Source: Phycisphaerae bacterium (GTDB lineage: Bacteria; Planctomycetota; Phycisphaerae; Sedimentisphaerales; UBA12454). Taken from it: 64,000 nucleotides of DNA. The notes beneath the pieces were generated by a model. It was not told the DNA's origin. It worked only from the letters and a program-made list of their open reading frames with translations, and ran no database searches. Shown piece by piece: positions 1,741-56,561 of the stretch; position 1 is the first letter of the stretch; each line of letters begins with the position of its first letter. The translations under genes were made by a program, and so were the position numbers. The stretch covers positions 14,622 to 78,621 of the forward strand of contig JBGOWI010000002.1 of NCBI GenBank assembly GCA_041478555.1. The letters are read 5' to 3'.

Positions 1741-1759
1741 TAACAACAGAATCGTTGTG

Positions 1760-1795
1760 GGGGCCGCACAAAAAAGCGGCCCCTTGTTTGATTTG
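1760..1795 (+). terminator. Rho-independent terminator
   Basis: GGGGCCGC-acaaaaaa-GCGGCCCC stem-loop followed by ttgtttgattt, 20 nt after the stop at 1740. Confidence 0.7.
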
Positions 1796-1842
1796 ACAAG
1801 TAATTGGTCGTGCATAATATATGTATGCGGCGAGCGCATACA
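1793..1842 (+). promoter_or_regulatory. Sigma70-like promoter plus operator-like palindrome
   Basis: TTGACA (1793-1798), 16-nt spacer, TAATAT (1815-1820). Directly downstream is TGTATGCG-gcgag-CGCATACA (1822-1842), perfect 8-bp inverted arms. Confidence 0.5.
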
Positions 1843-1912
1843 ATTCGATATATATATGTGAGGTATTATGTATAACAAATCGACATTACATACTATCAGG
1901 AGGGCAAATGTT

Positions 1913-4921: not shown

Positions 4922-4942
4922 TGTAATCAGAGAAAAACCGAA

Positions 4943-4973
4943 GGGGCTGGTCGTTAGGAAACCAGCCCCTTTC
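4943..4973 (+). terminator. Rho-independent terminator (weak T tail)
   Basis: GGGGCTGGT-cgttaggaa-ACCAGCCCC followed by tttcagg. Confidence 0.55.
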
Positions 4974-5032
4974 AGGATTAATCGGGTTAACGGCCGAGGG
5001 ACGAGTGGCCGTGTAGAACGGAGGTTCAATTT

Positions 5033-5911
5033 ATGGCAAAGACCATTATGAAAAAGCAAATTGGTTTTACATTAGTTGAGCTTTTGGTGGTAATATCGAT
5101 TATCGCCATCCTGTTAGCTGTTCTGATACCTACACTGCAGAGGGCTCGGGGTCAGGCTAAAAATATAGTGTGCAGGAACAACCTCAAACAATGGGGTATG
5201 ATGTTCTCTATGTATGCAAATGCTAATGATGGACGCTTTTTTCCAGGTTATGGGACTCGCCCAGATGGGTATTCTACAAATTGGTGGGTCGCAGGGGAGA
5301 TGTGGATGGTAAAACTGCGTCCCTACTACGGCGGCGTATCTGGCACGGACAGTACGAAAGTTGTAACCGAAGGCCACAAAAGTGGTGATACCGACAAAAT
5401 ACGCCAGTGTCCGAAGGCCACAAAATTCTTGAGTTCCCTACCTGATTGGTTGGAGACTACCCCATTCACAGACTGGGGAATTTATGGCGAAGGAAGACGT
5501 CCGGTTCCTGGACATGGCGAGAAAGGTCTTTATGGCAGCTACGGTATAAATGACTGGGTTCACAACCCACCTCCAGGTAACCCAAACGGCGATGGAAATT
5601 ACTGGAGGACCATGATAAATGTAAAAACTCCGAGTACTGTACCGGTATTTGGTGATTCCGTGTGGGAAGGAACAGCTGCTCGTGACACAGACCAACCTTC
5701 CGGCACGCCGGGCAAGTCACCCAACCTAAGTGGTATGTGGAATTTCTGTATACCACGGCATGGATTAGCTGTGAATTGGGTTTTTTTTGACCTCACTGCC
5801 CGGAAAGTTCCTATCAAGGAACTGTGGAACCAAAAATGGTCGCCAAATTTTATAACATACCAGAGAATAGCAGAGTGGCCGAACTGGATGAACGATGATT
5901 GGGGCAACTGA
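5033..5911 (+). CDS. Prepilin-type N-terminal cleavage/methylation domain protein, DUF1559 (H-X9-DG-like) family
   Basis: MKKQIG|[22 protein letters not shown] is a class III signal. A C-terminal [13 protein letters not shown] motif (H-X9-D) is present. GGAGG lies 9 nt upstream. Confidence 0.85.
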
Positions 5912-6148
5912 GAAACTGAGAAAGGTCCGGGCCTCGATGTGGCTCGAAGGCACTATAGCAAGCTGCAAAGTGGCGCCGTTACCTGACGCATTAATAAGTA
6001 AATACTGTCATCCTGGTTTGTATTCAGGTTTGTGACAAATAACATAATAGCGGGTTGCCAAACCTCCTTATCGTGGCTAATGAAATAGACTGGACAACTG
6101 ATTCAGATATGTTTTTTTACAGAGCTGCTTTTTTTGAGTTGATTGCTT

Positions 6149-8728: not shown

Positions 8729-11127
8729 AGAGCGGCACCGAGAAACGCAACACGACGGATCTCGTATTAAAAGCAATTGATACTTCCATAAAGATTTACT
8801 CTGGTCATCTGAAGATGGGTGGAACGAATCCTGATGGCTGCCAAATCGATGCGAATAATCTCTATTTTACCATTGCAGGAAAACCTATTTTGCCCGTAAT
8901 GGGTGAGTTTCATTTCTCGCGATACCCGCGGCAGTACTGGGAAGAAGAAATACTAAAAATGAAAGCTTGTGGCATAAATATTATCGCAACTTATATTTTC
9001 TGGATTTATCACGAGGAAATCCAGGGCCAGTGGAATTGGACCGGCGATAAGGACCTTCGGCATTTCGTCCAGTTATGTGCGAAACACAACCTGTATGTCT
9101 TCCCGCGAATAGGGCCTTTCGCTCATGGCGAATGCCGTAACGGCGGTTTTCCCGACTGGGTTTGGGAAATGCCGAATAAGCGAACCGATGACCCTGTTTA
9201 TCTGTCGTATGCGAGAAAACTCTACGCTGAAATATTTGATCAACTGAAAGGGCTTTTGTACAAAGACGGCGGCCCTGTAATCGGAATCCAGGTGGAAAAT
9301 GAGTATTGGTTGGGCAAGGCGGGCGAGAAGCACATGATGACGCTGAAGAATATGGCAATAGAAATCGGCTTTGATGTCCCGCTCTATACAATCACAGGAT
9401 GGAAAGATGCTTCGATTCCGCAGGACGAATTTATTCCTGTTTGGGGCGGCTATGCGGATTTACCGTGGGAGTTGCATACTGAAAAACTGCCGCCTATGCC
9501 TGAATACTTTTTCCATCATATTCGAAACAACGAGGTAATGGATGACAAATTGCGCCTAAAGATAAACGGCTACAATGTTGACTTTTCCCGCTATCCTTAC
9601 GCTACCTGTGAAATGGGCGCGGGAATTCAGATAACAGACCATCGCCGACCTGTTGTCAGCGCCGATGATGTTTGTAGTTTGTCAATGGTCAAGCTCGGCA
9701 ATGGCTCAAATCTGATGGGTTATTTTGTATTTCACGGCGGCACTCATCCAGACGGCATAAAAACCACTATGCAGGAAGTTTATGGCCGGCCATATAAGCT
9801 TGAATATCCCGTCAAATCTTACGATTTTCAGGCGCCTATTGGCGAGTATGGCCAGATTTCTGAATCATATAAAGGCTTCAAAATCATGCATCTGTTTTTG
9901 AATGATTTTGGGCAGCTTTTAGCTCCTATGATTAGTGTTTTGCCCGAGGAGCGGCCTGCGGATGTGAGCGACAAAAAGACCTTACGTTTTGCCGCCAGAG
10001 TGAAAGATGATGCCGGTTTTCTCTTTTTCAATAATTACCAGCGGCTTACCGAAATGAATAATTTCGAAAATCGCCGCATTGATTTAAAACTGAAAAAAGA
10101 GACGCTGCTGATGCCGAGAGAACCTTTTACTGTCAAAAAAGGAATGTATTTTATTTGGCCGTTCAATTTAGCTGTGAATGATGCGTTGCTGAAATATGCT
10201 ACTGCACAATTGCTTTGCAAAATTAATCATGATGCCGTGGATACGTACTTTTTCTTTGCTATCGACGATATTGATGTTGAATATGCTTTTGATTCGACGA
10301 CTATTAAAAGTGTCAAAGCTTATGGCGCGAAGATAAGTTCAGCTAACGGGCTAACTTATATTTCCGACCTGAAACCCGGTATAGATTGCATAATCCATAT
10401 AGTTACTGCATCTAGCGTTAAGGTAGATATTGTTACCCTGGCTGCTGAACAGGCAAAACACTGCTGGAAGGGCCAAGTCTGGGGCCGACAGAGAGTTTTT
10501 CTTACTAAGGCCAGCCTTCTCTTCGGGCGAAACGACCTTAGAGTTTACAGCACTGACCCAGCACAAATGTCCTTTTCGGTTTATCCGGCTGCAGAGGAAG
10601 AACTTTTTGACGGGTTCCATAGATTGCCAAGAGAAAATGACGGCTTATTTACTCGATATATTCTGACGAGACAGTACAAGAAGGTCCGGGTGACATTTAA
10701 TGACCGCAGTTCTGTCGGCAAATCAAAAAAACAGAAAAATGGTTATAGAGAATGGTCGATACATGTGCCGCAGGATGTACTGAATGGAACGAGCGATCAG
10801 TTTCTCCGCATACACTATGTTGGGGACACGGCTCGCGCTTATATTAACGGCAGACTTGTAGCTGATAATTTTTATAATGGTCTGCCGTGGGAAATCGGTT
10901 TAAAGCGATTCGCGCCCGAAGTTTTCCAGACGGGTCTTGTTGTTCAAATTACACCCATGCGGGATCAGTCACAAATATATCTGGAAGACTGGGCAAAAGT
11001 ATCTAAAGGTCAAGAACCCAATATACAAAAAATTGAGGTTTTGCCTGAATACTCCGCAAGCATTGTCCAGTCACAGTTGCCATCGGTAACTGTGAAAAGA
11101 ACTGCGTTGTCTTTAAGTAATGATTGA
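8725..11127 (+). CDS. GH35 beta-galactosidase, cytoplasmic (no signal peptide)
   Basis: GEFHFSRYPRQYWEEEILKMKACGINIIATYIFW and GGPVIGIQVENEY are GH35 hallmarks. The TTG start overlaps the GH2 stop (TTGA). An alternative start is ATG 8815. Confidence 0.8.
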   Translation: MKSGTEKRNTTDLVLKAIDTSIKIYSGHLKMGGTNPDGCQIDANNLYFTIAGKPILPVMGEFHFSRYPRQYWEEEILKMKACGINIIATYIFWIYHEEIQGQWNWTGDKDLRHFVQLCAKHNLYVFPRIGPFAHGECRNGGFPDWVWEMPNKRTDDPVYLSYARKLYAEIFDQLKGLLYKDGGPVIGIQVENEYWLGKAGEKHMMTLKNMAIEIGFDVPLYTITGWKDASIPQDEFIPVWGGYADLPWELHTEKLPPMPEYFFHHIRNNEVMDDKLRLKINGYNVDFSRYPYATCEMGAGIQITDHRRPVVSADDVCSLSMVKLGNGSNLMGYFVFHGGTHPDGIKTTMQEVYGRPYKLEYPVKSYDFQAPIGEYGQISESYKGFKIMHLFLNDFGQLLAPMISVLPEERPADVSDKKTLRFAARVKDDAGFLFFNNYQRLTEMNNFENRRIDLKLKKETLLMPREPFTVKKGMYFIWPFNLAVNDALLKYATAQLLCKINHDAVDTYFFFAIDDIDVEYAFDSTTIKSVKAYGAKISSANGLTYISDLKPGIDCIIHIVTASSVKVDIVTLAAEQAKHCWKGQVWGRQRVFLTKASLLFGRNDLRVYSTDPAQMSFSVYPAAEEELFDGFHRLPRENDGLFTRYILTRQYKKVRVTFNDRSSVGKSKKQKNGYREWSIHVPQDVLNGTSDQFLRIHYVGDTARAYINGRLVADNFYNGLPWEIGLKRFAPEVFQTGLVVQITPMRDQSQIYLEDWAKVSKGQEPNIQKIEVLPEYSASIVQSQLPSVTVKRTALSLSND

Positions 11128-11246
11128 ACTCGCTTTAAATTAAACCACGTCTTCGCTTATGGGGAAAGCGGCTGGATTTTGATGGCAATATTGTTAATCT
11201 ACAATTCTTGCGGGATAAAAATTATTTTGGTAACGAAAGGAATGTA

Positions 11247-13451
11247 ATGGGCGGCAGCAGCAACTTAATCGGTCATTTTACTCTTCCAGTCCAAAAGGGA
11301 ATGGATGAAGAAGTACAGATGTTATGTAAGAAATGGGGTGCTGATGCTATCCGTGACAGCGACGGAACCACTTTATCACCGGAAATACTCAATATGGGAC
11401 ATGAGGTCTATTCTACTATTTGTCTTATCAGAGCTGACCAGCAATGGGCTAAAGCTCATCCGGACCAGTGTCAGCAAAAGTATCTTATATCCTTTCCTGT
11501 AAGCTGCCAAAGTGGCGAAGAATTAAGGATTAAAATCCAAAAAGGCTATAGCCATGAGCAGTTCAGGATAGACAGCAAACATGACCCTAAAAAGTATTGG
11601 GAAGTTATCGATAGAACTACCGGCCAAGTCGTAAGCACAAATGATTGGCGATATTTGGAGGCGAGCCAGGAAGTTATTATCCGAAATGCAAAAAGATGGC
11701 ATATTTATACAGTTAATTTTCTCGTCTATCAGATTTGGGAAACCACATCTATGTACAATTATATTACCAATAATTGGACGGGAGAACATCAAATGGGGCT
11801 GGACCCTCGCCAACCACAAACCTGTAAGCACCTGTTGGAGTACCTTGACCAGTGGCTTCAAACCCATCCGAAAACTGATGTTGTTCGCTTTACATCCATG
11901 ATGTATCAGTTTCCCCTGATTAAAAATGAAAACAGGGAAACTGTGTATTTGGAATGGACAGGCTATCTGGACGCTATGAGCGCACTGGCAATGGACGAAT
12001 TTGAAAAAGAAAAAGGCTATCGCTTGCGCAGCGAAGATATTGTAGATGAAGGTTACTTTAATAACTCCTCCAGAGTTCCGAAAAAGGAATTCCTTGACTG
12101 GATAGATTTCGTAAAAAAGTTCGTAAGAGCCTACACAAAGCAATGCGTGGACATGGTTCATAAGTATGGCAAGAAAGCGGTACTGTTCTTCTGCGACCAT
12201 TGGATTGGAACAGAGCCTTATATGGAAGGATTTGCAGGACTCGGATTCGATGGAATAATTGGGCCTTGCTTGAGCGGTGTTGAACTCAGAAGAATTACAG
12301 ATGTACCCGGAAATATGATTAAGGAAGTCAGATTATATCCCTACTTCTTTGCGGTTAATCTTCAGAATGAACCGGTTTTTCAGGAAGGCGGCGACCCAGT
12401 TAAGGAGTGCAGGAAGTGGTGGAAAGGGATTCGAAGGGCTTTGCTGAGGCGCTGTGCGGACCGAATCGGTTTTGGCGGCTATTTGGACCTGGTTGTGAAG
12501 CACCCTGATTTCCTGGACTATGTGGAACAATTGGCTGACGAATTTAGAACTGTACTGTACAGGACACAGAAGACACTTGCCTACAGTATTGGTAAGAAAG
12601 TAGCAATGCTCGATGTTTGGGGAAAAACCCGCTCATGGATGCACAATGACAATTGGCCCGAAGGTCACATCCCGGAGTGTTTGAGCGGCCTGCCGGCAGA
12701 AGTGGAGTTCATCAGCTTTGATGACATACGCAAGAACGGTATCAGTGATGATATCGGCGTAATTATTAATTGGGGCAGGGCCAATAGCGCCTGGAGCGGC
12801 GGCAAGAATTGGATATATCCTGACGTTGTTGAAAAAATCCGACAGTGGGTTTACCAGGGCGGAGGCTTCATAGGTGTCGAAGACCCCACTGCCTGCGAAT
12901 ACCAAGGCAGATTTTTCCAGCTTGCCGATGTCTTAGGTGTTCAAAAGGAAGTTGGAAATACTCTCGGCTGGGGCAGGAACATAAGACCGGCAGTAAATAA
13001 GACGCACTTTATCCTCGAAGATTCTGCAGGTGACCTCGAAGTTGGCGTAAGTAATTCCGCAGTTTACCTTAGTAGTGAAAAAGCAGAATTATTGGCTGGA
13101 ACCCCCGATAAAGTCCTCTTGTCAACTCATACCTTTGGTAAAGGAAGGGCAGTTTACCTGGCGGATTACAAACACAATCCGGAAAATATCCGCATAGTGT
13201 ATCGGGCAATCCTGTGGGCGGCAGGCCTTGAAAATAAACTAAAAATATGGTTTAGTTCCAACTATAATACAGATTGTGCCTATTATCCGCAGGTTAGGGA
13301 ATTTGTCGTTATGAACAACACGGATGTCTCCCAGAAAACAACTGTTTATAATGCAGATGGTAAATCTGCAGATATTTCTTTAAAACCAATGGAAATGAAA
13401 TGGTTTACGTTGGATGAGATAAATCAACGTTGTAATATACGCAAGAGATAG
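11247..13451 (+). CDS. gnpA: GH112 1,3-beta-galactosyl-N-acetylhexosamine phosphorylase (galacto-N-biose/lacto-N-biose phosphorylase)
   Basis: N terminus ..GHFTLPVQKGMDEEVQMLCKKWGADAIRDSDGT.. and a length of ~735 aa match LNBP/GNBP-type enzymes. The track ORF starts at TTG 11208; ATG 11247 has AAAGGA upstream. Confidence 0.75.
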   Translation: MGGSSNLIGHFTLPVQKGMDEEVQMLCKKWGADAIRDSDGTTLSPEILNMGHEVYSTICLIRADQQWAKAHPDQCQQKYLISFPVSCQSGEELRIKIQKGYSHEQFRIDSKHDPKKYWEVIDRTTGQVVSTNDWRYLEASQEVIIRNAKRWHIYTVNFLVYQIWETTSMYNYITNNWTGEHQMGLDPRQPQTCKHLLEYLDQWLQTHPKTDVVRFTSMMYQFPLIKNENRETVYLEWTGYLDAMSALAMDEFEKEKGYRLRSEDIVDEGYFNNSSRVPKKEFLDWIDFVKKFVRAYTKQCVDMVHKYGKKAVLFFCDHWIGTEPYMEGFAGLGFDGIIGPCLSGVELRRITDVPGNMIKEVRLYPYFFAVNLQNEPVFQEGGDPVKECRKWWKGIRRALLRRCADRIGFGGYLDLVVKHPDFLDYVEQLADEFRTVLYRTQKTLAYSIGKKVAMLDVWGKTRSWMHNDNWPEGHIPECLSGLPAEVEFISFDDIRKNGISDDIGVIINWGRANSAWSGGKNWIYPDVVEKIRQWVYQGGGFIGVEDPTACEYQGRFFQLADVLGVQKEVGNTLGWGRNIRPAVNKTHFILEDSAGDLEVGVSNSAVYLSSEKAELLAGTPDKVLLSTHTFGKGRAVYLADYKHNPENIRIVYRAILWAAGLENKLKIWFSSNYNTDCAYYPQVREFVVMNNTDVSQKTTVYNADGKSADISLKPMEMKWFTLDEINQRCNIRKR

Positions 13452-13457
13452 GTCTGA

Positions 13458-15536
13458 ATGATAACGCCTAAAGTTCCAAAGATTATATTTGGCGGAGATT
13501 ACTTTCCTGAACAGTGGCCCCAGGAAATCTGGAAGGAAGATATCCGCCTGATGAAGCAGTCCAATGTAAATATGGTCAGCATTGCCATTTTTACCTGGGC
13601 ACTTCTTCAGCCTGATGAAGATACTTATACCTTTGACTGGCTGGATAAAGTGATGGATCTTATAGCAGAAAATAATATTTATGCCTGTTTAGCCACTTCA
13701 ACGGCAGCTCCTCCTGTCTGGCTGGCCTGTAAGTACAGTGATGTTCTGCCGGTCACAGAATCGGGGCAGAGAATCGATTATGGTTCCCGGCAGGCGTACT
13801 GTATCAACAGCCCTACTTACAGAAAATTCATCCGCAAATTAGCTGAAAAAATGGCCGTCCGTTATAAGGACCACAAGGCATTGGCCTTGTGGCATATCAA
13901 TAATGAGTACGCAAACAAAAACCAAATGTGTTTCTGTGGAAACTGCGAAAAACTTTTTCGAGAGTGGTTAAAGGGAAAATATGAAACCATTGACAGGCTG
14001 AATGAAATCTGGGGTACTGTTTTCTGGGGAGAAAGATACGCTTGCTGGGAGCAGATAAATACGCCCAAGGCCAGTAGCGGCTCAAGGAATTCCACAAAGT
14101 TGCTTGATTATAAAAGGTTCTTAAGTGAAAGCTTTTTTACTCTGTATCTGGAGGAATACAATATCCTCAGACAAATTACGCCGAGTATACCTATTACTAC
14201 TAATTTTGAAGGGGACTGGCGTAAATTTGACCACTCGTTATTCAAAAACCATTTAGATGTGGTCTCGTGGAACTGTTATCCGGACCCGGCCAATCCTGAT
14301 TCGCGCAAATGGGCGGCGCTGCGACATTCTATGATGCGTTCTTTACTGGGCAGGCCATTTATGCTTATGGAACAAGCCCCTTCACAGGTGGACTGGTATC
14401 CGGTGAATATTAATAAACCTCCCGGACTGATGCGTCTGTGGAGTTATCAGGCTCTGGCTCATGGCTCCGATTCGATAATGTATTATCAGTGGCGGGCTTC
14501 CAGAAAGGGCGCTGAGAGATACCACAGTGGTGTAATTCCACATTTCGGTGAAGATTCGAGGGTATTTAAAGAGATATGCAGCTTAGGCAATGAATTGGAA
14601 AAGGCAAAAGATATTGTCGGTTCCGACATAGATTCAAAAGTGGCAATTGTTATGGATAACGATTCATGGTGGGCGATCGATAATCCATACGGTCCTGCCG
14701 GCAGTAAATCCCTTGATAATGAGGTTTTCTGGACCGCCAATGCTCAGCCCTTCCCAACAGTGCTGGTCAGTTATTTTGGCGAGCTGGAATACTATTTTAA
14801 TGCTCTGTATGACCTGAACGTTCCGGTTGATGTTATTCCCGTTCATTATGATTTCTCGAAGTATAAAATCGTTATCGCTCCGCTTCTACATATGATTAAA
14901 CCGGCCTTTAAGGAAGCCGTAGAGAGTTTTGTGAAAAAGGGCGGTATCTTTGTTACGACTTATTTTACAGGGCTGATTGACGAATCTGTAGGCGTATATC
15001 TGGGCGGCTACCCCGGACCGCTGAAAGATGTTATGGGTATCAAGGTTGAAGAATACAACCCATTACCGCCTGGCAGCAGGAACACAATGAAAATGACTGC
15101 GACGCTCAACGGTTTTAAAAAAGATTACGGCTGTTCAGTATGGTGCGATGTCATCCATACGACAGGTGCGAAGGTGTTGGCAGCATTTGCAAATGATTAT
15201 TATGCCGGCAGTCCGTGTTTTACTGAAAATCAGTTTGGAAATGGAAAAGCCTACTATGTAGGTACCAGGCCGGATGAAGATTTTATGAGAGATTTCTTTA
15301 CGAAAATTTTAAAGGAGCAGGAGATTGACTTGCCCGATTTGCCCCAGGAAGTCGAGTTGATGACCAGGTCCAAAAAAGGCAAGTCCTATTGTTTTTACCT
15401 GAATTATGGAGAAAATGAAAAGACAATAAAGCTACCCTCAGGCAGATACGAAGATATACTAACAGGAACTATCTGTGAGCGAACGCTGACTTTGGCTAAA
15501 TATGGTGTATCCATTTTAAGGAGCAAATGGCGTTGA
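13458..15536 (+). CDS. GH42 beta-galactosidase, cytoplasmic
   Basis: GGDYFPEQWPQEIWKEDIRLMKQSNVNMVSIAIFTWALLQP and WHINNEY are GH42 hallmarks; length 692 aa. Confidence 0.88.
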   Translation: MITPKVPKIIFGGDYFPEQWPQEIWKEDIRLMKQSNVNMVSIAIFTWALLQPDEDTYTFDWLDKVMDLIAENNIYACLATSTAAPPVWLACKYSDVLPVTESGQRIDYGSRQAYCINSPTYRKFIRKLAEKMAVRYKDHKALALWHINNEYANKNQMCFCGNCEKLFREWLKGKYETIDRLNEIWGTVFWGERYACWEQINTPKASSGSRNSTKLLDYKRFLSESFFTLYLEEYNILRQITPSIPITTNFEGDWRKFDHSLFKNHLDVVSWNCYPDPANPDSRKWAALRHSMMRSLLGRPFMLMEQAPSQVDWYPVNINKPPGLMRLWSYQALAHGSDSIMYYQWRASRKGAERYHSGVIPHFGEDSRVFKEICSLGNELEKAKDIVGSDIDSKVAIVMDNDSWWAIDNPYGPAGSKSLDNEVFWTANAQPFPTVLVSYFGELEYYFNALYDLNVPVDVIPVHYDFSKYKIVIAPLLHMIKPAFKEAVESFVKKGGIFVTTYFTGLIDESVGVYLGGYPGPLKDVMGIKVEEYNPLPPGSRNTMKMTATLNGFKKDYGCSVWCDVIHTTGAKVLAAFANDYYAGSPCFTENQFGNGKAYYVGTRPDEDFMRDFFTKILKEQEIDLPDLPQEVELMTRSKKGKSYCFYLNYGENEKTIKLPSGRYEDILTGTICERTLTLAKYGVSILRSKWR

Positions 15537-16663
15537 TTGGCCAAGTGAAGAAGATTATGAAATCAAAACAATACTTTTTTTTGACGATTATGATTTTATG
15601 CATTACTCAAACTGTTGCTGCGAAAGATTTTCTCATCGGTGCGGATATATCGGCGTTGACGGTGCTTGAGGAAACTGGTGCGGTGTATCGCGAGAACGGC
15701 GGGCCGAATGACCTTATTGCTATTTTAAAGAATAACGGGTTTAACACTGTACGGCTGCGTCTGTTCGTAAACCCGGACAAAAAAGGTGTTGTTACAAATG
15801 ACTTGCCTTATACCCTGAACCTTGCAAAGAGGGCCAAAGCTCACGGCATGAAATTGTTGTTGGATTTTCATTATTCAGACACATGGGCAGACCCCCAGAA
15901 ACAGAGCAAACCTGCGGCTTGGGAAAACATGTCCTTTGAAGAACTGAAACAAACAGTGCAAAGCTATACTGCCTCTGTCATAAAAGCCTTCAAAAATGAA
16001 AATGTACTTCCGAACATTGTGCAAATTGGTAACGAAATTACCCCAGGTATGCTTTGGCCCGATGGGAAAGTCAGTGAAAAATATGACAATGAACTTCAAT
16101 GGGAGAAATTCAGCTCTTTGCTTAAGGCTGGCATTGCCGGCGTCCGGGCAGCAGCCCCCGATGCCGACCTGAAAATTATGCTTCACATCGATCAGGGTGG
16201 CAAAAAAAGCGTTAGTCAATGGTTTTTTAGCAACATTAATAAGCATAAGGTTCCTTACGATATTATTGGTATAAGTTACTATCCCTGGTGGCACGGGACA
16301 ATTGAAGACCTCAAGGAAAACCTGAACTACATTGCCATGGAACTCAAGAAAGACGTAGTGATTGTGGAAACAGCCTACCCGCATACCACGGATAAATGGT
16401 ATGAACACCCTGAGGAACTGCCATATCCAATGACGCCCCAGGGACAATATGATATGCTTCACATAATTACAAAGACGGTACTCGAAACCCCTGATAAACG
16501 CGGTTGCGGAGTATGCTACTGGTTTCCGGAGTCAGTGCCGGTTGCAAAGCATAATTGGCTGGGAGGTTCTGCCGCTCTGTTTGACTCTGACGGAAATTCG
16601 CTGGCTGGTATCCATGCTTTTGCCGATGCGGCCGGTTCAAGGCAATTCAAAAAAAAGCGGTGA
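15527..16663 (+). CDS. Secreted GH53 arabinogalactan endo-beta-1,4-galactanase
   Basis: Signal peptide ..MKSKQYFFLTIMILCITQTVAA. GADISALTVLEETGAVYRENG, VRLRLFVNP, VQIGNEI and VETAYP are GH53 motifs. AGGAG lies upstream of 15527; an alternative start is 15557. Confidence 0.85.
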   Translation: MALIGQVKKIMKSKQYFFLTIMILCITQTVAAKDFLIGADISALTVLEETGAVYRENGGPNDLIAILKNNGFNTVRLRLFVNPDKKGVVTNDLPYTLNLAKRAKAHGMKLLLDFHYSDTWADPQKQSKPAAWENMSFEELKQTVQSYTASVIKAFKNENVLPNIVQIGNEITPGMLWPDGKVSEKYDNELQWEKFSSLLKAGIAGVRAAAPDADLKIMLHIDQGGKKSVSQWFFSNINKHKVPYDIIGISYYPWWHGTIEDLKENLNYIAMELKKDVVIVETAYPHTTDKWYEHPEELPYPMTPQGQYDMLHIITKTVLETPDKRGCGVCYWFPESVPVAKHNWLGGSAALFDSDGNSLAGIHAFADAAGSRQFKKKR

Positions 16664-18468: not shown

Positions 18469-18864
18469 TTAGGGCAACGGGGGTGTTACCCAGCCTGTTT
18501 TGACGCTGTAAATAAAACTGCCTCTCGAACGAGTGCTGATATAAACGCAGTGGTTATGGACAGCGAAAGTGGCTTCGATTTTGTTGCTGTCTGGCGTTTT
18601 AATCTGCACCGCACCGTATTGTGCCAGACTGTTTCGCATCTCAGTTCCAAGCTGCAATATTTGTTCGTCAGAAAAACCTGCCCGCCGCATTATTTGCACA
18701 ATATCTTCGGCATTCAAGGCTATAATGTCCCGATTGCTTAAAGGCATAAGCCTAAGCCCGGTATTTGATAACCTTGTGGACTCGCAACTGACCAAAATGA
18801 CTACACCTGTCAACAAAATCAAAATGAAAACAACATTTGTCAACTTATGCCTAATCGGTTTCAT
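18469..18864 (-). CDS. Small lipoprotein, last gene of the secretin operon (pilotin candidate)
   Basis: The signal ends in lipobox ..VVILVS|C (Cys27). It starts 20 nt after the secretin stop on the same strand. No recognisable family. Confidence 0.7.
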   Translation of the reverse strand: MKPIRHKLTNVVFILILLTGVVILVSCESTRLSNTGLRLMPLSNRDIIALNAEDIVQIMRRAGFSDEQILQLGTEMRNSLAQYGAVQIKTPDSNKIEATFAVHNHCVYISTRSRGSFIYSVKTGWVTPPLP

Positions 18865-22456: not shown

Positions 22457-24127
22457 TTAGCCCCCTTTAATAATAGGCTCAATAACTTCAACAATTCTCT
22501 GGCCACCTCTGCCAGAGACTTGTATGGGTACTATTTTGGTTGCTTTTCCGCCGCCGCCATGCTGCATAATTGCCTCGAGACGATATACGCCGGCAGCGAT
22601 TCCGGAAAAATCAAGTATTCCGGAGAAGTTTCTGATTTCAAGCGGCAGCATAAGACCTGTCTCGCCGGTCAGTAATATGCTTTTCACCATCGTGCCTTGA
22701 GGCGTTGTGAGTTCGGCTGTGCATCGTGGGCTCAGATGTATCGTTCCTATATTGCCGAATCTGCCGATGATTGCATAGCGGGAATTTCCTTCATCAGCAA
22801 CCGTTACCTTCATTGCCTGAGCAATAGGCTGAGCTTTCTGCTGTTTGTTCTCAAGGCACAGTATCGCATTTGTCAGGCCGGCGTTCTGACCGTCAGTGCT
22901 GTATTTGGCTGACAGTGTAATATCCGAATAATAATTGCTTTTCATTGATTCTGCCCTGGGCATATTTGTAACAATGCGAACGCCCTGCGAAGCACCAGGC
23001 CTGAGCGTGAATTTGTCGGGAACAACCTTGACCCATTCGGAACAAACCAGCTCCTCACCCTGCAGCTCGCCGAAGGCAACGCCCTTCAAAACGGCCGGCG
23101 TTGTCGCAGCAGCCACAATATCAATGGTGCTGTCCGAGGCATTTCGAACCTTTAGTACCGCCGACCGTGTTGCCCCGGGTGCGATGCTTATGAACAGCTC
23201 CGGCGGTTCCAAATCGAGCGCCGCATCAGCAGCAGCTTTCTTAATAGCCGGGTCGCCAACAAAGTCTATCTCTTTCTCAATAGGTTTTGCTCGTCTTCCA
23301 TCTATGTAAAGTTTGCCGTTTAATTTGTATTTCCCCGACGGCAGCGACCGGCCTATATCACTTTTTAAATCCAAGGTTATGCCGGGAATAATTCCGACTT
23401 CCTTGATTTTTGCGGTAGTGATGTTGCGCCAATGGCCGCCGGAGAATACCTGAGCGGTTATACCGCCGGTAAGACGTGAAAATTTTTTGCCGTTGTTTTC
23501 TACCTTCATTGACAGAAGGGTTGTTGCGGCTGATTGTTCGGCTGGCATTTTAAACTGCATATCGACATCGGTCAGCTCCACCTTCTGGAGCATTGTGCGG
23601 CCCTGTATCTCGACAAGAATTGGGATTAAAAACCGTATGATTATAGCGCTGCCGTTTGCATCCGGTTTTGGTCTGGTCTGGATAGTTATACCAGCGATGT
23701 AAAATCCCTGGGCGCGAGAAGGCACTCTAACGGCAAATTCGACTGCTCCTCCGGAAAGAGGTGCAAGTTTTATGCTGTCATTTTTAAGTTTTATCCATTC
23801 TCGACAGGAAGGAACTTCGGACGTGTTAACATCAGAACCCTGTTCGATAACTCTCGGACTGCCGTCTTCAGATTGAGTTATATCGACTACGCCTATGTCC
23901 ATTGTCATTACCTTGTTAGGCTCTTCATTTAGGACATGTATAACTTGTGTGATTTTATTGCCGGCATACGGTTCAAGTTCTATCTTCATAGGCCTGACAC
24001 GAAACTTGTCGGCCCAGGTCAATGGTGCCAAGTAGAGAACAACGGCAAGAGCACACAGCCTCCACAGTGTGTAGTAGTTATAAATCGTCAGAACCTCATT
24101 TTTCTTCTGAGCTTTCATATCACCCAA
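22457..24127 (-). CDS. Secreted 556-aa protein made of an internally duplicated two-domain beta-rich unit (Ig-like; PapD-chaperone/DUF916-like by pattern)
   Basis: Signal ..LCALAVVLYLAPLTWA|DKF. Unit 1 is aa ~45-290 and unit 2 aa ~300-556. The units share ..C[RS]EW[IV]K...D.[IF].L.P......V...V..P.. and a second domain ending in G.Y.L.. . Its stop lies 2 nt before the secretin start. Confidence 0.8.
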   Translation of the reverse strand: MGDMKAQKKNEVLTIYNYYTLWRLCALAVVLYLAPLTWADKFRVRPMKIELEPYAGNKITQVIHVLNEEPNKVMTMDIGVVDITQSEDGSPRVIEQGSDVNTSEVPSCREWIKLKNDSIKLAPLSGGAVEFAVRVPSRAQGFYIAGITIQTRPKPDANGSAIIIRFLIPILVEIQGRTMLQKVELTDVDMQFKMPAEQSAATTLLSMKVENNGKKFSRLTGGITAQVFSGGHWRNITTAKIKEVGIIPGITLDLKSDIGRSLPSGKYKLNGKLYIDGRRAKPIEKEIDFVGDPAIKKAAADAALDLEPPELFISIAPGATRSAVLKVRNASDSTIDIVAAATTPAVLKGVAFGELQGEELVCSEWVKVVPDKFTLRPGASQGVRIVTNMPRAESMKSNYYSDITLSAKYSTDGQNAGLTNAILCLENKQQKAQPIAQAMKVTVADEGNSRYAIIGRFGNIGTIHLSPRCTAELTTPQGTMVKSILLTGETGLMLPLEIRNFSGILDFSGIAAGVYRLEAIMQHGGGGKATKIVPIQVSGRGGQRIVEVIEPIIKGG

Positions 24128-24170: not shown

Positions 24171-24199
24171 ATATTACCATTTTTGTTAAAAAAAGTCAA
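24171..24199 (-). promoter_or_regulatory. Sigma70-like promoter of the 556-aa/secretin/lipoprotein operon
   Basis: The minus strand reads TTGACT-17 nt-TAATAT, about 45 nt upstream of the ATG at 24127. Confidence 0.5.
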
Positions 24200-24490: not shown

Positions 24491-24531
24491 TAAAAAAACA
24501 GGAAGGGCTTTCAGTTAATCAACCCTTCCTG
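24491..24531 (-). terminator. Rho-independent terminator after the 169-aa subunit gene
   Basis: The minus strand reads CAGGAAGGG-loop-CCCTTCCTG followed by TTTTTTTA. Confidence 0.8.
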
Positions 24532-24555: not shown

Positions 24556-25065
24556 TTACAGATTGTCATTCACAGTCAGCAATACTGTTGCGACCCGCTG
24601 AACGTGAGGACTTGAAGGTATGTAAGTAATGTCCACGTTGTTCACTGCTGCGCCGACATAAAATATCCTGCCGACCGGTGGCGGGGCGGGAATATCAAAT
24701 GCCATCTCATCAGTATCATCTTCCAGTATCCACTCAGCTCTGTTCTGAGGCAAATTCTGCGGATAGTCGGCAAGAGCAACCAGATACTTTGCAGTTGGTC
24801 CCAGTGATGGACCGAAGGGGACTATCATAACTGTAACCAGAACCGGAAAGTTATGCGTCATAGTTACGGCAGTATAGCCACGGTAAAGCGGATGAACACC
24901 AGATGGGTCGCCGAGTGTAAGTAGTATTTCTGCCGGGTCAATTGTAAGGATTACTGTTTTGTCAATCAGCATCACAACAGGAATTTGCGCTTGAGCCAAT
25001 ATCCCACCAGCAAATGCCGGAGCTGCTGTCAAAGCAATTGCTGCTAATGTCAGTATTTTTTTCAT
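24556..25065 (-). CDS. Small secreted beta-rich protein, putative fibre subunit (paralog of 25982-26488)
   Basis: Signal MKKILTLAAIALTAAPAFA|GG. The mature protein begins with an alternating hydrophobic stretch (IPVVMLIDKTVILTIDP) and ends VATVLLTVNDNL. It is collinear with its 168-aa paralog. Confidence 0.8.
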   Translation of the reverse strand: MKKILTLAAIALTAAPAFAGGILAQAQIPVVMLIDKTVILTIDPAEILLTLGDPSGVHPLYRGYTAVTMTHNFPVLVTVMIVPFGPSLGPTAKYLVALADYPQNLPQNRAEWILEDDTDEMAFDIPAPPPVGRIFYVGAAVNNVDITYIPSSPHVQRVATVLLTVNDNL

Positions 25066-25746: not shown

Positions 25747-25786
25747 ATAAAAAAGCAGGAAGGACTAATTACTTAGCCCTTCCTGC
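25747..25786 (-). terminator. Rho-independent terminator after the 168-aa subunit gene
   Basis: The minus strand reads GCAGGAAGG-loop-CCTTCCTGC followed by TTTTTTA. Confidence 0.8.
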
Positions 25787-25981
25787 TTAAACTTTTTCAG
25801 ATTGCAGGATTTTTTAAAATCCTACCCTCTTTGCCGCATCATTGCAGCCGCTTACTGTTCATACTGCAGAGTACTTATTTCCTGCAGATGAAACAACGTT
25901 GTTACATCCGTTACGAACTTTACATTTTACCCTTGTATCCTCCGAAGCTTTAGCGAAGGAGGGTAACAATACTCCTGCTCT

Positions 25982-26488
25982 TTACAGATTGTCACTTACT
26001 GTCAGCAATACTGTTGCAACCTGCTGAGCAGCAGGACTTGAAGGTATAAAGCCAATGTCCACATTAGCTACTGCTGCACCGACATAAAATAGCCTACCGG
26101 CTGGCGGGGCGGGAGTCGTGAAGTCCATGTCGTCGGTATTGCCTGCTGCTTGCCACCCAACGTACGTTTGAGGCAAATTAATCGGGAAGTCGGCAAGAGC
26201 GACATGATATGTGGCAGCTGCTCCCAGTGATGGACCGAAGGAGTTTATCAATGCTGTAACTGTAACTGGGAAGTTATGCGTCATAGTTACGCCAGTATAG
26301 CCACGATAAAGCGGATTACCTAAATTCGGGTCGCCTATCGTAAGTAATATTTCTGGCGGGTCGACTGTAAGGTTTACGGTCTTGTCAATCACCATCATAA
26401 CAGGAATCTGCGTTTGGGCTAATATCCCGCCGGCGAATGCCGGAGCTGCTATCAAAGCAATTGTTACTAATATCAGTAATTTTTTCAT
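25982..26488 (-). CDS. Small secreted beta-rich protein, putative fibre subunit (paralog of 24556-25065)
   Basis: Signal MKKLLILVTIALIAAPAFA|GG. THNFPVTVTALI and a C-terminal VATVLLTVSDNL are shared with the paralog. Confidence 0.8.
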   Translation of the reverse strand: MKKLLILVTIALIAAPAFAGGILAQTQIPVMMVIDKTVNLTVDPPEILLTIGDPNLGNPLYRGYTGVTMTHNFPVTVTALINSFGPSLGAAATYHVALADFPINLPQTYVGWQAAGNTDDMDFTTPAPPAGRLFYVGAAVANVDIGFIPSSPAAQQVATVLLTVSDNL

Positions 26489-26841: not shown

Positions 26842-27264
26842 TCAGGGTTCAGCCATTATGGTAATGACCAGAGTGCCTGTATATTCTCCTGCCGAGTCGC
26901 TGGATTTGATATCAATAGTGAACTTTAGATTTATATCCACATCGACGCCTTCAGGAGGAGTGCCTGACGAGACTAATGGCGGCACCATTTCAACATTGGT
27001 TCTTTCCTTCGGAATAAAACCTCCGGCAGGACTTGCAAACGCTCCTCCGATTGATGCGATGATACGATGAGGACAATTAGCGGTTATATGTACTTTTATG
27101 GTGGAATTAAATGTTTGCTGACCATACTGGCTGGCACTGCCGAGGTCGATTTTGTCGGGTACGGAGATGCTGGCGAACGGTTCTGCCTGTAGAGTAGTTC
27201 CTCTCCCCAGGCAGAATACTAAAATTACTGCCACAAATAGTATTATGTATCCACTCCGTGCCAT
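26842..27264 (-). CDS. Small secreted protein with SCPU/fimbrial-subunit-like features
   Basis: The track ORF starts at 27279; ATG 27264 has GGAGGAGCGAAGG upstream and matches the paralog start. Signal ..ILVFCLGRGTTLQA|EP. IKVHITANCPHRIIASIGG and the C-terminal SAGEYTGTLVITIMAEP resemble spore-coat-U/Csu-type and type-1 pilin ends. Confidence 0.75.
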   Translation of the reverse strand: MARSGYIILFVAVILVFCLGRGTTLQAEPFASISVPDKIDLGSASQYGQQTFNSTIKVHITANCPHRIIASIGGAFASPAGGFIPKERTNVEMVPPLVSSGTPPEGVDVDINLKFTIDIKSSDSAGEYTGTLVITIMAEP

Positions 27265-27387
27265 CCTTCGCTCCTCCATATATTTATCCTGTTTTTTCCT
27301 TTCTTTAGTTGAAACGTTACATTTTCAAGGTTGAAATTGCCGATAATACAAAAACTTATGCTCGTTAAACCATTTCTTATAGGACTT

Positions 27388-27723: not shown

Positions 27724-28410
27724 TCAAGAATTAGAGTTGTTAGCATCATCCACAAAAAACTCGTTTTGGCTCAACCTCTCGAAAAAATCATTTTCTTGGG
27801 ACAGAGTCTCGTTTTGCTCCGTAAGCATCGTGTTCTCATCGGCCAGATGAGTAGTTTTCTCCGCAAGAGATGCATTTTCCGCTGTGAGCCTGTTATTTTC
27901 TGCGCTTAGCTGCTCTATCCTGATACAGTACTCTCTTGCAGCCTTTCTGATTTGGTCGTTCAGTATTTCGATTCTCTCTGTAAGTTTTTGATTTTCCTCG
28001 GTAATTGTTTGATTGCCGGCTGCCAGTGTTTCTGTCTGGCCGATGAGTGTTTCGAGCTGATTTTCGAGTGTTTCAATTTGGCTAACAAGTTCCTGATTTT
28101 CACTTAAAAGCTCGGCATTCTGGCTGGAGAGGGTATGACTCTGGGTTTCAAATTCCTCAGCAAGCATCCGGGCTTTCTTCTGTTCGAGGCTCAGGTGTTC
28201 ACTTAACTTTTGTTTTTCCATCTGTAGATGGCTGATGGTCTGAATCATTGTCTGTCTTTCTTTGAACAGCAATGCGGCAGCGCCGGTTAAAGCAAGCAAA
28301 ATTACCGTCAGCAAAGATACCACAATAACTCTGCGCCCCAGGCCTGATTTGTGCATTCTTTTGCCGTCTTCGTTAGACGATGTATCAAATGTATTTTCAC
28401 TGAAATCCAT
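27724..28410 (-). CDS. Bitopic membrane protein with a ~170-aa coiled-coil ectodomain
   Basis: One TM segment (VIVVSLLTVILLALTGAAALLF) is followed by heptad-rich Q/E/N/L sequence (..ENQELVSQIETLENQLETLIGQTETL..). Confidence 0.7.
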   Translation of the reverse strand: MDFSENTFDTSSNEDGKRMHKSGLGRRVIVVSLLTVILLALTGAAALLFKERQTMIQTISHLQMEKQKLSEHLSLEQKKARMLAEEFETQSHTLSSQNAELLSENQELVSQIETLENQLETLIGQTETLAAGNQTITEENQKLTERIEILNDQIRKAAREYCIRIEQLSAENNRLTAENASLAEKTTHLADENTMLTEQNETLSQENDFFERLSQNEFFVDDANNSNS

Positions 28411-30365: not shown

Positions 30366-32018
30366 TTGAAAGGTAATTTGTTCAAAAAGTCCGCACTTAT
30401 AGTGTATATCACGTCGATTCTGGGGATTGTGCGGGCTTGCTTCTCCAAGGAATCGCCGACAGACATTCCCCATCTTGGAAAACACCGAGACGCTACGCAG
30501 CTCATTGTGGACGGCGAACCATTTCTGATACTTGGAGGCCAACTGGGAAACTCAAGTGCATCCAGTCTCAATTATATAAGGCCGATATGGCGCAAGCTGG
30601 TCCAGATGAATCTCAACACAGTCCTGACACCTGTTTACTGGGATTTGATAGAACCCCGCCAAGGCAAGTTTGACTTTACGCTGGTCGATGGTCTTATAGC
30701 CGGTGCCAGACGGCACAATCTGCGTCTAATTCTTCTATGGTTTGGAAGCTGGAAAAACAGCATGTCCTGCTATGCACCGCAGTGGGTTAAAACCAATCAA
30801 CAGCGTTTCCCGCGAGCCAGACTTCGAACCGGACAGGCTATGGAGATTCTTTCAGCCTTTGATAAGGCAAATCTCGATGCCGATGCGTCCGCTTTCGCGG
30901 CTCTTATGCGACACATTCGTAAAATAGACGGCAGAAAACACACAGTCATTATGGTTCAGGTAGAGAATGAAGTAGGGATGCTGGAAGATGCGCGAGACTA
31001 CAGCGATGAGGCCAATCTTGCTTTTAAACAGCAGGTGCCGAAGGAGCTGATAGATTACCTTAAAGAAAACAAGGATATACTTGTGCCTGAGTTCCGCCAG
31101 GTTTGGCAGGCCGCCGGTTTCAAAACAGGCGGCGGGTGGGAAGAAGTCTTCGGCAAAGGTCTTTGGACGGATGAAATCTTCATGGCCTGGCACTACGCGC
31201 GCTACATTAATCAGGTAGCCCAGGCAGGCAAAGCTGAGTATCCTCTGCCGATGTTTGCCAACGCAGCGCTGAACCGTCCGAACCACAGACCCGGCCAATA
31301 TCCCAGTGCCGGGCCGCTGCCACATTTGTTCGACATCTGGCGAGCTGCTTCTCAGGAGATTGATTTTTTTTCGCCTGATATTTACTTTCCTGATTTTGGG
31401 CAGTGGTGCCGGAAATACCATCGGGCCGCGAATCCGTTGTTCATACCTGAGACGGGCAGGGATTTGCATAGTGAGATTAACGTGTTTTATGCCGTCGGAC
31501 AACACGATGCGATTGGGTTTAGTCCATTTTCGATTGAATCAATCCCGCCGGAAAACTCGCCGATTTCCAGAAGCTACGAAATCCTTTCTCAGTTATCGCC
31601 CTTGATTCTGGAAAAACAGGGCAGCGGTGCAATGGCAGGTGTATTGCTGGACAAGGAAAATCAGACTCAGGAAATAAAATTGGGCAAATACACTCTGAAG
31701 GTTTCTCACGATTACACGTTTGAGTGGACGCCGAGGCCTCGCGAGGCCCAGTTTTGGCCGCCTGCAGGGGGTATTATCATTTTGACAGGGCCTGACGAAT
31801 ATGTGATTGCCGGTGCCGGCTTGATTGTTACATTTGCTCCGAATCCGCCATCAGGCCAGATTGCAGGAATAGCCGGCATTCAGGAAGGAACGTATGTGAA
31901 TGGCCGCTGGGTTGGCGGACGCTGGTTGAACGGCGACCAGAGTCACCAGGGCAGACATCTGAATTTGCCTTCCGGCAGTTTCGGCATACAGCGCATCAAA
32001 CTGTACCGTTACCGCTGA
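30366..32018 (+). CDS. Clan GH-A beta-galactosidase-like glycoside hydrolase (GH35/42-related, DUF4978/DUF5597-type architecture)
   Basis: LIVDGEPFLILGGQLGNSSAS..IWRKLVQMNLNTVLTPVYWDLIEPRQGKFDF and VQVENEVG are present. The start is TTG. The exact family is uncertain. Confidence 0.6.
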   Translation: MKGNLFKKSALIVYITSILGIVRACFSKESPTDIPHLGKHRDATQLIVDGEPFLILGGQLGNSSASSLNYIRPIWRKLVQMNLNTVLTPVYWDLIEPRQGKFDFTLVDGLIAGARRHNLRLILLWFGSWKNSMSCYAPQWVKTNQQRFPRARLRTGQAMEILSAFDKANLDADASAFAALMRHIRKIDGRKHTVIMVQVENEVGMLEDARDYSDEANLAFKQQVPKELIDYLKENKDILVPEFRQVWQAAGFKTGGGWEEVFGKGLWTDEIFMAWHYARYINQVAQAGKAEYPLPMFANAALNRPNHRPGQYPSAGPLPHLFDIWRAASQEIDFFSPDIYFPDFGQWCRKYHRAANPLFIPETGRDLHSEINVFYAVGQHDAIGFSPFSIESIPPENSPISRSYEILSQLSPLILEKQGSGAMAGVLLDKENQTQEIKLGKYTLKVSHDYTFEWTPRPREAQFWPPAGGIIILTGPDEYVIAGAGLIVTFAPNPPSGQIAGIAGIQEGTYVNGRWVGGRWLNGDQSHQGRHLNLPSGSFGIQRIKLYRYR

Positions 32019-35016: not shown

Positions 35017-35760
35017 ATGAAGAAACTAATTGTTTGTTGTTTTATGTTGGTTGTGTTAAGCATGCCAGCATATGCGGATTTCACTGTGACGACAATTGCC
35101 GACCTGTCTGCATGGCCGGATTCGCCGCAGGTTAAATGCACAGTGAATCCTGGCACTGACACCACACCCGCCAACGGCCAACCCTATTCGCCAGAGCAGA
35201 ACTGGGGTGGTGGCGCTCTGCAGCAGCTTGGTCAGGTTTTTATGGTTCCCAGCTCGTACATCGGAACTCCAACATTGGACAAGGTTGCCGTTAAACTCAG
35301 CGGTACTGCTGGCACCTTGAGCGTCAAGTTGTATGACCTTTGGCCGGGAGACTTCAATGATAATTTCCACGGATGGGGCAATGGCAACCAGGGGACCTTG
35401 AGTCCTGTTAACCTTACGACCAACGCGACTCTCTTGATTAACGACACGTGGGCTTATCCAGGCAGTGCCACCGCGAAGGTGTATCTGTTGGATTTCACTG
35501 GCAGTCAAGAGGTAGCACTTGCGTATGCTGAAAAGTATATGTTCGTACTGGATCATGATAATACTTTTCAGGTGTCGTGGTACCGCAATGGCCTCTATAG
35601 CTACACCGATGGTGATGTGTATAGAGACACCGGCGCGGGTACTACTATGCAGTATGTCAATGGTGCTGGCCGCGAGGCCGGTATGGCTGTCTATATTCCC
35701 GAGCCGGCGACTATCGCTCTGTTAGGTCTTGGACTGGCTTTGCTCAGGAAGCGCAGCTAA
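35017..35760 (+). CDS. Secreted PEP-CTERM-anchored protein (unassigned beta-rich ectodomain)
   Basis: Signal MKKLIVCCFMLVVLSMPAYA and C terminus IPEPATIALLGLGLALLRKRS. A strong RBS taaggaggag is present. Confidence 0.9.
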   Translation: MKKLIVCCFMLVVLSMPAYADFTVTTIADLSAWPDSPQVKCTVNPGTDTTPANGQPYSPEQNWGGGALQQLGQVFMVPSSYIGTPTLDKVAVKLSGTAGTLSVKLYDLWPGDFNDNFHGWGNGNQGTLSPVNLTTNATLLINDTWAYPGSATAKVYLLDFTGSQEVALAYAEKYMFVLDHDNTFQVSWYRNGLYSYTDGDVYRDTGAGTTMQYVNGAGREAGMAVYIPEPATIALLGLGLALLRKRS

Positions 35761-48101: not shown

Positions 48102-48161
48102 TTTGTCCTTTTCTACCGGTAGCAATTGCCGTTCAAATCTGCTTCAAGGGTCAATCCTGAA

Positions 48162-49445: not shown

Positions 49446-49455
49446 CTGTCCTTTT

Positions 49456-56545: not shown

Positions 56546-56561
56546 TTTTGTTCCCCTTAAA

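Follow-up and report, generated by a model that had tools for sequence, protein, structure and literature searches.

PapD-like chaperones such as FimC, PapD, Caf1M and CsuC are Sec-exported proteins of two immunoglobulin (Ig)-like domains. They insert a beta strand into pilins (donor-strand complementation), and Arg/Lys residues in their cleft anchor the C-terminus of the subunit. Two Ig domains, set perpendicular to each other, are also found in WxLIP, which combines a DUF916 (PF06030) domain, a DUF3324 (PF11797) domain and a transmembrane helix, and which is encoded in the WxL surface-protein loci of Lactobacillales and Bacillales (PMC10599100). Located at the cell surface, WxLIP binds WxL proteins and stabilises them; by prediction, one of its strands closes a gap in their beta-sandwich (PMC10599100). 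Here we describe p556, a tandem WxLIP-like/PapD-fold protein encoded beside a secretin in a 64,000-nucleotide stretch of DNA from a Phycisphaerae bacterium (GenBank assembly GCA_041478555.1, contig JBGOWI010000002.1, positions 14,622 to 78,621; this whole stretch is referred to below as the window). The best explanation of the evidence presented is that p556 is a dedicated partner in a secretin-based, ATPase-independent module with which Phycisphaerae assemble or export surface fibres.

The p556 unit resembles WxLIP in having two Ig domains with a DUF916-type domain in first place, and both proteins are encoded beside small beta-rich secreted proteins. In contrast to WxLIP, p556 is duplicated in tandem and has neither a DUF3324 signature nor a C-terminal transmembrane helix; its small neighbours are not WxL-domain proteins by sequence, whereas WxLIP clusters with at least two of these; and its host is a diderm planctomycete, where the module adds a secretin and a lipoprotein. 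With PapD-like chaperones the p556 units share Sec export and the two-domain Ig-like layout, and the p556 family shows faint matches to ASH ("PapD-like") domains and to the pilus chaperone structure 4ncd. Chaperone-usher systems likewise have a partner of pilin-like fold (predicted here) and no ATPase in the module. Unlike these chaperones, p556 carries no PapD_N or PapD_C domain, shows no profile similarity to five Escherichia coli representatives, is a tandem fusion, and is partnered by a secretin instead of a FimD/PapC-type usher.

The secretins of the type II secretion system (T2SS), type IV pili (T4P), the type III secretion system and phage pIV share the STN/N0, N1 and secretin core domains with the secretin of this locus, and the small lipoprotein gene that follows it here is a pilotin-like arrangement. 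The module differs from those systems in having no conserved genes for an inner-membrane ATPase, a platform protein or (pseudo)pilins, in putative substrates that carry Sec signals and an Ig-like pilin fold (predicted for one of them, s145), and in up to eight N-terminal transthyretin-like repeats that stand where AMIN domains would. The ciliary and centrosomal ASH/MSP/CEP192 proteins have in common with p556 an Ig subtype arranged in tandem, not a function. The secretin, the WxLIP/PapD-fold protein and the pilin-like subunits are of known kinds. In the literature searched, we found no secretin joined with a chaperone or donor-strand system in Planctomycetota, nor the tandem fusion or its combination with an ATPase-free secretin.

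Internal duplication and predicted fold of p556

Plain BLASTP of the two p556 halves returned only a single high-scoring segment pair of 58 amino acids (aa) with E 3e-4, and the halves were therefore compared as profiles, cut from a 57-sequence alignment of the p556 family. The two half-profiles matched with a probability of 95.5% (E 1.4e-8) over 212 colinear columns. Domain by domain, A1 matched A2 (95%, E 3.5e-8) and B1 matched B2 (27%, E 6.7e-4), with all A-versus-B control comparisons at 8% or below. At the profile level, the duplication of an A+B unit is confirmed: it is solid for the A domain and weaker, though colinear, for B.

The AlphaFold2 (AF2) model obtained with the same alignment is all-beta and contains four Ig-like domains (predicted local distance difference test, pLDDT, 88.4; predicted template-modelling score 0.80). 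The profile comparison and the model together bear out the initial annotation, which had described the protein as an internal (A+B)×2 repeat on the strength of two similar peptide strings and a G-x-Y-[KR]-L motif. Both strings were found, at residues 107 and 362 of the open reading frame (ORF), and the motif occurs exactly twice, at ORF residues 265 (GKYKL) and 513 (GVYRL). The first copy lies in the C-terminal end of B1, SLPSGKYKL..LYIDGRR, which is the most conserved stretch of p556; the C-terminal end of B2 reads AAGVYRL. The size proposed for the unit, that of a PapD-like chaperone, was approximately right: about 255-260 aa, somewhat above the 231-246 aa of five E. coli fimbrial chaperone precursors.

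Start codon, signal peptide and location of p556

The database protein P0001 is 100% identical to p556, is 553 aa long and starts at the ATG at 24118, which is the probable true start, giving a product of 553 aa. The N-termini of the 57 family members are typical Sec signals with the consensus A-x-[GA]/Q-F-x-V-x-P-M, where the slash marks the predicted cleavage site. The first beta strand, F-x-V-x-P-M, begins directly after that site and is followed by a conserved K/R. Since the signals end in A-x-G/A right before the first strand, mature p556 would be cleaved, soluble and periplasmic, and not anchored in the membrane. A membrane-anchor reading of the N-terminus was considered and rejected, the 57 N-termini having the look of cleavable Sec signals. 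At the other end of the protein (...RIVEVIEPIIKGG) no hydrophobic stretch was found, nor does the AF2 model end in a helix.

A row of four Ig-like domains might also form a structural periplasmic connector or ring bound to the secretin in fixed stoichiometry and functionally comparable to PilP/GspC or to the multi-Ig stalk PorM/GldM, which would span the wide planctomycetal periplasm and would not act on subunits as a chaperone. Conservation is much the same in all four domains (mean column identity 0.40-0.50), as would befit a structural part, and p556 always adjoins the secretin gene, from which it is separated here by 2 nucleotides (nt). An apparently cleavable Sec signal with no membrane anchor argues against such a connector, as does the kinship described in the next section, where the nearest relatives by sequence and fold are strand-donating WxLIP partners; the conserved pilin-like small genes would be left unexplained as well. 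We therefore regard a purely structural role as unlikely.

Relationship of p556 to WxLIP and PapD-like proteins

In the 57 family members, PF06030 (WxLIP_PGBD/DUF916) matched 14 proteins at E ≤ 0.01, always in domain A1. The best score was that of P0079, with 37.9 bits against a gathering score of 27.3 (residues 46-139); p556 itself reached 23.4 bits (E 6e-5, residues 69-150), which is under the cut-off, and its other sub-threshold Pfam matches were Cep192 D5/D3 and fn3_5. Across the same family, Big_14 (PF20251) matched domain B1 in 17 members, while ASH, OCRL-ASH, Cep192 (D3/D5/D7) and fn3_5 matched the A domains weakly. DUF3324 (WxLIP_HBD, PF11797) gave no match at E ≤ 0.01 in any of the 57.

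When the family profile was compared with all PDB sequences, three matches in total were obtained at E ≤ 10. The top two were constructs of EfmWxLIP1 (E 0.016, on A1), and the third was 4ncd, a "Gram-negative pili assembly chaperone" (E 0.53, on A2). In Foldseek searches, the two-domain p556 unit aligned to 9i1y_A and 9i25_C, both Enterococcus faecium WxLIP, with E 1e-10, a target-normalised TM-score of 0.55-0.58, a root-mean-square deviation of about 6 Å and about 264 columns, the best compact match. The lowest E-values belonged to long tandem-Ig proteins of the ciliary ASH type, with query-normalised TM-scores of only 0.15-0.23.

Because Pfam, PDB-sequence and fold matches all point there, the p556 A domain is a distant relative of WxLIP, the closest known relative of p556 by sequence and fold, and p556 as a whole belongs to the broad PapD-like/ASH Ig fold type. 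The initial annotation had noted a pattern like that of DUF916/DUF3324 proteins; its DUF916 half is upheld by the PF06030 and 9i1y/9i25 matches, and its DUF3324 half is not, no such signature being present in the B domains. "PapD-like" Ig domains of the ASH/CEP192 types also turned up in both Pfam and Foldseek. Membership of the PapD chaperone family proper was rejected at the sequence level, by Pfam on the 57 members and by hhalign against five chaperones (figures are given with the proposed mechanism).

Generic Ig-fold similarity combined with a fortuitous neighbourhood would make p556 an unrelated periplasmic beta-sandwich. The Foldseek list does hold many unrelated multi-Ig proteins (complement, transglutaminase, integrins), and the Pfam matches of p556 itself are sub-threshold. 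This account is contradicted by synteny, as the gene order is kept across 27 loci at 33-51% protein identity; it is also at odds with PF06030 scores above the gathering threshold in family members, and with a PDB sequence search whose only matches were the two WxLIP constructs and a pilus chaperone. We find it hardly credible.

Given the predicted strand insertion (PMC10599100) and the WxLIP-WxL complex deposited as PDB 9i25, the closest relative of p556 appears to work by strand complementation. Kinship with a surface protein that binds and stabilises its WxL partners (PMC10599100) could instead mean that p556 is exported via the secretin and displayed on the surface, as an anchor or adhesin of the WxLIP kind, keeping the small proteins in place there and possibly binding polysaccharide. 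The titles of two reports connect WxL/csc clusters with carbohydrate use (PMC1534035, PMC9026416), and glycoside hydrolases and carbohydrate-binding modules abound in the window. This carbohydrate-active context is not conserved in the other loci, though, and p556 has neither the C-terminal transmembrane helix of WxLIP nor any other anchor. Its conservation, moreover, far exceeds that of the small proteins, an unusual trait in a surface-exposed adhesin, and surface display of p556 strikes us as rather improbable.

A conserved gene module around p556

Clustered at 50% identity, the p556 family retrieved by scanning with a hidden Markov model (HMM) comprises 316 clusters at E ≤ 1e-30 and 1,228 at E ≤ 1e-10; at E ≤ 1e-3 there were 5,136 proteins. 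Among the best 150 matches, nearly all were full-length four-domain proteins, and about a dozen were shorter and covered part of the profile. Source names among the matches listed were "hypothetical protein", save for one JGI label, "P pilus assembly chaperone PapD". The p556 family is large, and nearly all of it is without functional annotation.

From a collection of species-representative genomes we recovered 29 loci, 27 of them informative and these mostly from Phycisphaerae. Nearly all 29 belong to metagenome-assembled genomes (MAGs) of Planctomycetota, in Sedimentisphaerales, Phycisphaerae and "Pirellulales" bins. The order of the module is an s145-type gene, one or more variable small proteins of the s16x type, p556, the secretin and a small lipoprotein. 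The secretin adjoins p556 in 27 of the 27 informative loci, and in 25-27 of them p556 and the secretin are followed, in this order, by a protein of about 130 aa. Upstream of p556 lie one to three copies of the variable s16x-type gene and, in most loci, the s145-type gene too; both types are found upstream in every locus whose sequence extends far enough. All-against-all clustering of the flanking ORFs within ±10 kb otherwise returned just antisense shadow ORFs and a ClpB gene, which stands after the module in one sub-clade only.

Identity to the window proteins was 40-51% for p556 and 45-55% for the secretin core, compared with 21-37% for s145 and 20-28% for distant s16x-type proteins. By this measure the small-protein genes evolve much faster than p556 and the secretin, at rates like those of fimbrial operons.

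No gene for an ATPase, a platform protein or a prepilin/pseudopilin is conserved within ±10 kb in the 27 loci. A GspE/PilB-type ATPase, a platform protein and prepilins are also absent from the 64-kb window, though such genes could lie elsewhere in the genomes. Neither the window nor the flanks contain an usher (PF00577), and the outer-membrane partner is the secretin.

The secretin was identified by PF00263 (E 4.2e-38), Secretin_N (E 1.3e-6) and STN (E 3.5e-5). Its layout comprises eight N-terminal repeats, a linker, STN/N0, Secretin_N and the secretin core. The repeats (residues ~27-650) are about 80 aa long, transthyretin/CarboxypepD_reg-like and marked by the motif KEGY.F.P; the linker before N0 (residues ~650-800, about 150 aa) is rich in P/E/T/Q and is acidic or proline-rich. 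Two of the related secretins (L006 and L011) are short, at 451-494 aa, and have no N-terminal repeats. Possible roles for the repeats are binding of peptidoglycan, bridging of the periplasm, or docking.

In NCBIfam, the PilQ and GspD models gave the best secretin scores, though below their cut-offs. These scores would suit a locus that is accessory to a T2SS/T4P machine encoded elsewhere. The secretin would then be a second way out, the small proteins (and possibly p556) would be ordinary folded cargo of the T2SS, and p556 would be no more than a helper for particular cargo. All known secretins depend on inner-membrane machines, and in one locus (L026) type IV prepilin-like genes lie upstream. 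Such an arrangement is hard to reconcile with the missing ATPase, platform and pseudopilin genes in the 27 loci and the window, with small proteins that bear Sec and not prepilin signals, and with the s145 predicted fold described below, which resembles an incomplete pilin and not a globular enzyme. We judge it improbable.

The p556 stop codon (TAA, 22459-22457) is separated from the secretin ATG at 22454 by a spacer of 2 nt, and a purine-rich AAAGGGGG lies just upstream of this ATG, inside the end of the p556 gene. The translational coupling claimed in the initial annotation is therefore plausible in this genome; it does not extend to the family, since the gap in 23 related loci is usually 100-170 nt, so that adjacency is conserved and tight coupling is not. 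Downstream, the secretin and the p131-type gene often overlap by 4 nt in relatives. In the p131 relatives the lipobox is conserved, as is a core reading ...DD[IV]V.[VI]MRRAGFSD.QIL..GT..., and p131 gave no Pfam or NCBIfam match. It is a reasonable guess that p131 is a pilotin-like or accessory helper of the secretin and a candidate for a new pilotin family.

Small secreted proteins of the s145 and s16x types

Across loci, the s16x-type proteins measure about 160-200 aa and the s145-type proteins about 145-177 aa. Both types carry Sec signals (MKK...PAFAG) and no prepilin motif. The s145 family ends in the C-terminal motif G-x-Y-x-G-x-[ILV]-x-[FIL]-T-[IV]; written as Y-x-x-x-[LIV]-x-[IFL]-x-[IV]-x-x-x-P, the C-terminus of s145 loosely recalls the WxL motif.

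The AF2 model of s145, built from 38 sequences, is a beta-sandwich with a pLDDT of 83.5. Foldseek placed self-complemented or N-terminally reversed FimA on top (E 7e-6 to 1e-4, TM-score 0.45-0.55), with CsuA/B, the PapG pilin domain and FimF/G among the further best PDB matches; no WxL chain was found among the top 50. The hydrophobic signal peptide was modelled as a 12-residue beta strand. This may reflect the model filling an open groove, which would be a hallmark of donor-strand-dependent subunits. The tandem-chaperone or fibre-base role that the initial annotation had raised for p556 gains strength from this predicted pilin-like fold, and we would still word it as a possible role.

The two types are likely homologous. 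Comparison of s145 with s16x by hhalign gave a probability of 56% over 40 columns, one protein (L006, 1318-1821) matches both HMMs, and the two families share an Asn that is invariant within a [ST]-N-[CF] motif. The s16x-type genes are tandemly duplicated, with two copies here and three in L029. Near-identical terminator hairpins (AAGCAGGAAGGG...CCTTCCTG followed by a T run) come after both s168 and s169, the two copies in the window, and a truncated s145-like ORF lies between them (Table 1). The arrangement evidently reflects a tandem duplication of an s145-s16x-terminator cassette, the second s145 copy of which would have decayed. Tandem subunit genes that each have their own terminator would match a pattern seen in fimbrial operons.

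Proposed mechanism

We give an even chance to p556 being a periplasmic, tandem strand-complementing chaperone or adaptor that feeds pilin-like subunits to a secretin acting in place of an usher. In such a pathway, s145- and s16x-type proteins would cross the inner membrane by Sec and arrive in the periplasm as incomplete Ig-like folds of the pilin type. There p556 would capture them by putting a beta strand into the open groove, as PapD-like chaperones do for pilins and as WxLIP is predicted to do for WxL domains. Its two units might hold two subunits, or a single subunit while p556 docks on the periplasmic N-terminal domains of the secretin. The subunits would then be passed on, probably by strand exchange, to polymerise and leave through the secretin channel, which would serve instead of an usher, and p131 may help with targeting or assembly of the secretin.

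Several observations weigh against this mechanism. PapD_N (PF00345) and PapD_C (PF02753) matched 0 of the 57 p556 family members at E ≤ 0.01, and hhalign of each p556 half against the E. coli K-12 fimbrial chaperones FimC, SfmC, YadV, YehC and YraI gave a probability of 2.1% or less. The s145 and s16x types have no meaningful Pfam match at E ≤ 1, WxL and Fimbrial families included. Their identification by sequence as WxL domains or known pilins was rejected: in Pfam, in profile searches of PDB sequences and in hhalign comparisons with 12 E. coli pilins, nothing but their signal peptides was matched. The likeness of s145 to pilins is moderate (TM-score about 0.5) and comes from a single AF2 model. 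All secretins characterised so far operate together with an ATPase machine of the inner membrane. Finally, the loci are mostly from MAGs, and the whole case is computational and drawn from uncultured genomes.

More tentatively, and as a possibility we would not yet favour, the module may represent an undescribed "chaperone-secretin" fibre pathway in which a tandem WxLIP/PapD-like holder works with an ATPase-free secretin as usher. This would be a diderm counterpart of the WxL/WxLIP loci and would link WxLIP, in both evolution and mechanism, to donor-strand chaperones.

Features of the locus and its neighbourhood

The features of the locus are listed in Table 1. A sigma-70-like match upstream of p556 suggests that p556, the secretin and p131 may form a transcription unit of their own.

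Table 1. Coordinates of the p556 module features in the window
Feature	Position	Strand	Remarks
p556, tandem WxLIP-like/PapD-fold protein	22457..24127	(-)	mechanical ORF of 556 aa, opening TTG at 24127
Sec signal peptide of p556	24011..24118	(-)	residues 1-36 (...LAPLTWA/DKF); from N-termini of 57 members, predicted cleavage
Unit 1 of p556	23249..24010	(-)	A1 ~residues 37-176 (DUF916/WxLIP_PGBD-like) and B1 ~177-290 (Big_14-like); 553-aa numbering
Unit 2 of p556	22460..23248	(-)	A2 ~residues 296-428 (weak ASH/Cep192/fn3_5-like matches) and B2 ~429-548; 553-aa numbering
Secretin, 1189 aa	18885..22454	(-)	by Pfam domains; ATG 2 nt past p556 stop
p131, small lipoprotein	18469..18864	(-)	lipobox LVSC; follows secretin in 25/27 loci
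s145, conserved small Sec-secreted protein	26842..27279	(-)	C-terminal motif; pilin-like predicted fold
s168, s16x type	25982..26488	(-)	paralogue of s169, 70% identity
s169, fast-evolving small Sec-secreted protein, s16x type	24556..25065	(-)	candidate major subunit
Truncated s145-like ORF, 69 aa	25165..25374	(-)	copy of s145 5' part, between s168 and s169
Intrinsic-terminator-like hairpin after s168	25753..25788	(-)	strong, with T run
Related hairpin after s169	24492..24531	(-)	CAGGAAGGG...CCCTTCCTG with T run; 15-nt loop; read directly
Sigma-70-like promoter match upstream of p556	24171..24199	(-)	TTGACT-17-TAATAT, extended -10; consensus match only

Upstream of the module, the window encodes a 228-aa protein (27724-28410, minus strand) with one transmembrane segment and an extended, heptad-like coiled coil (repeats of ...ENQ.L...). 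Its conservation is limited to L004, the nearest long locus (69% identity), so it is doubtful as a member of the system and is not counted among the core genes. Among the related loci, L005 encodes an autotransporter-like repeat protein of 1972 aa just upstream of the module (1041-6959, minus strand), and the type IV prepilin-like genes of L026 (FTLIELL; 2046-4078, plus strand) lie upstream as well; neither is conserved elsewhere.

Four loci carry non-planctomycetal labels, namely Desulfuromonadales (L011), Clostridia (L023), Aegiribacteria (L025) and Devosia (L027). Mis-binning seems likelier here than wide horizontal spread, because these loci show 35-45% identity to planctomycetal proteins and lie on short contigs. 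One MAG bears two distinct p556 homologues (L012 on CAYSLN010000376 and L019 on CAYSLN010000290), so more than one module copy per genome is possible, as with fimbrial operons.

In the wider window, carbohydrate-active genes are dense at 6143-16663, 30366-32018 and 46275-58724. They include GH2, GH35, lacto-N-biose phosphorylase, GH42, GH53, GH35/DUF5597, GH10 and a GH30-like gene, together with two CBM4_9 proteins, Laminin_G_3 proteins and a MalK-type ABC ATPase. This density suggests that the genome belongs to a galactan- or galactoside-degrading member of the Phycisphaerae. At 35017-35760 on the plus strand lies the gene for a protein of 247 aa whose C-terminus carries a PEP-CTERM sorting motif (PF07589, E 1e-4).

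Significance

If the proposed mechanism is true, the module would be a new means of crossing the outer membrane that is independent of energy, secretins being thought to need ATP-driven machines. What WxLIP/DUF916 proteins do in pathogenic and commensal Gram-positive bacteria is not yet well understood, and a distant diderm homologue in a fibre-export context would support a strand-complementing role for this superfamily. No paper in the literature searched links any gene module to the surface fibres of Planctomycetota; the p556 family would provide concrete candidate genes for the fibres of these bacteria.

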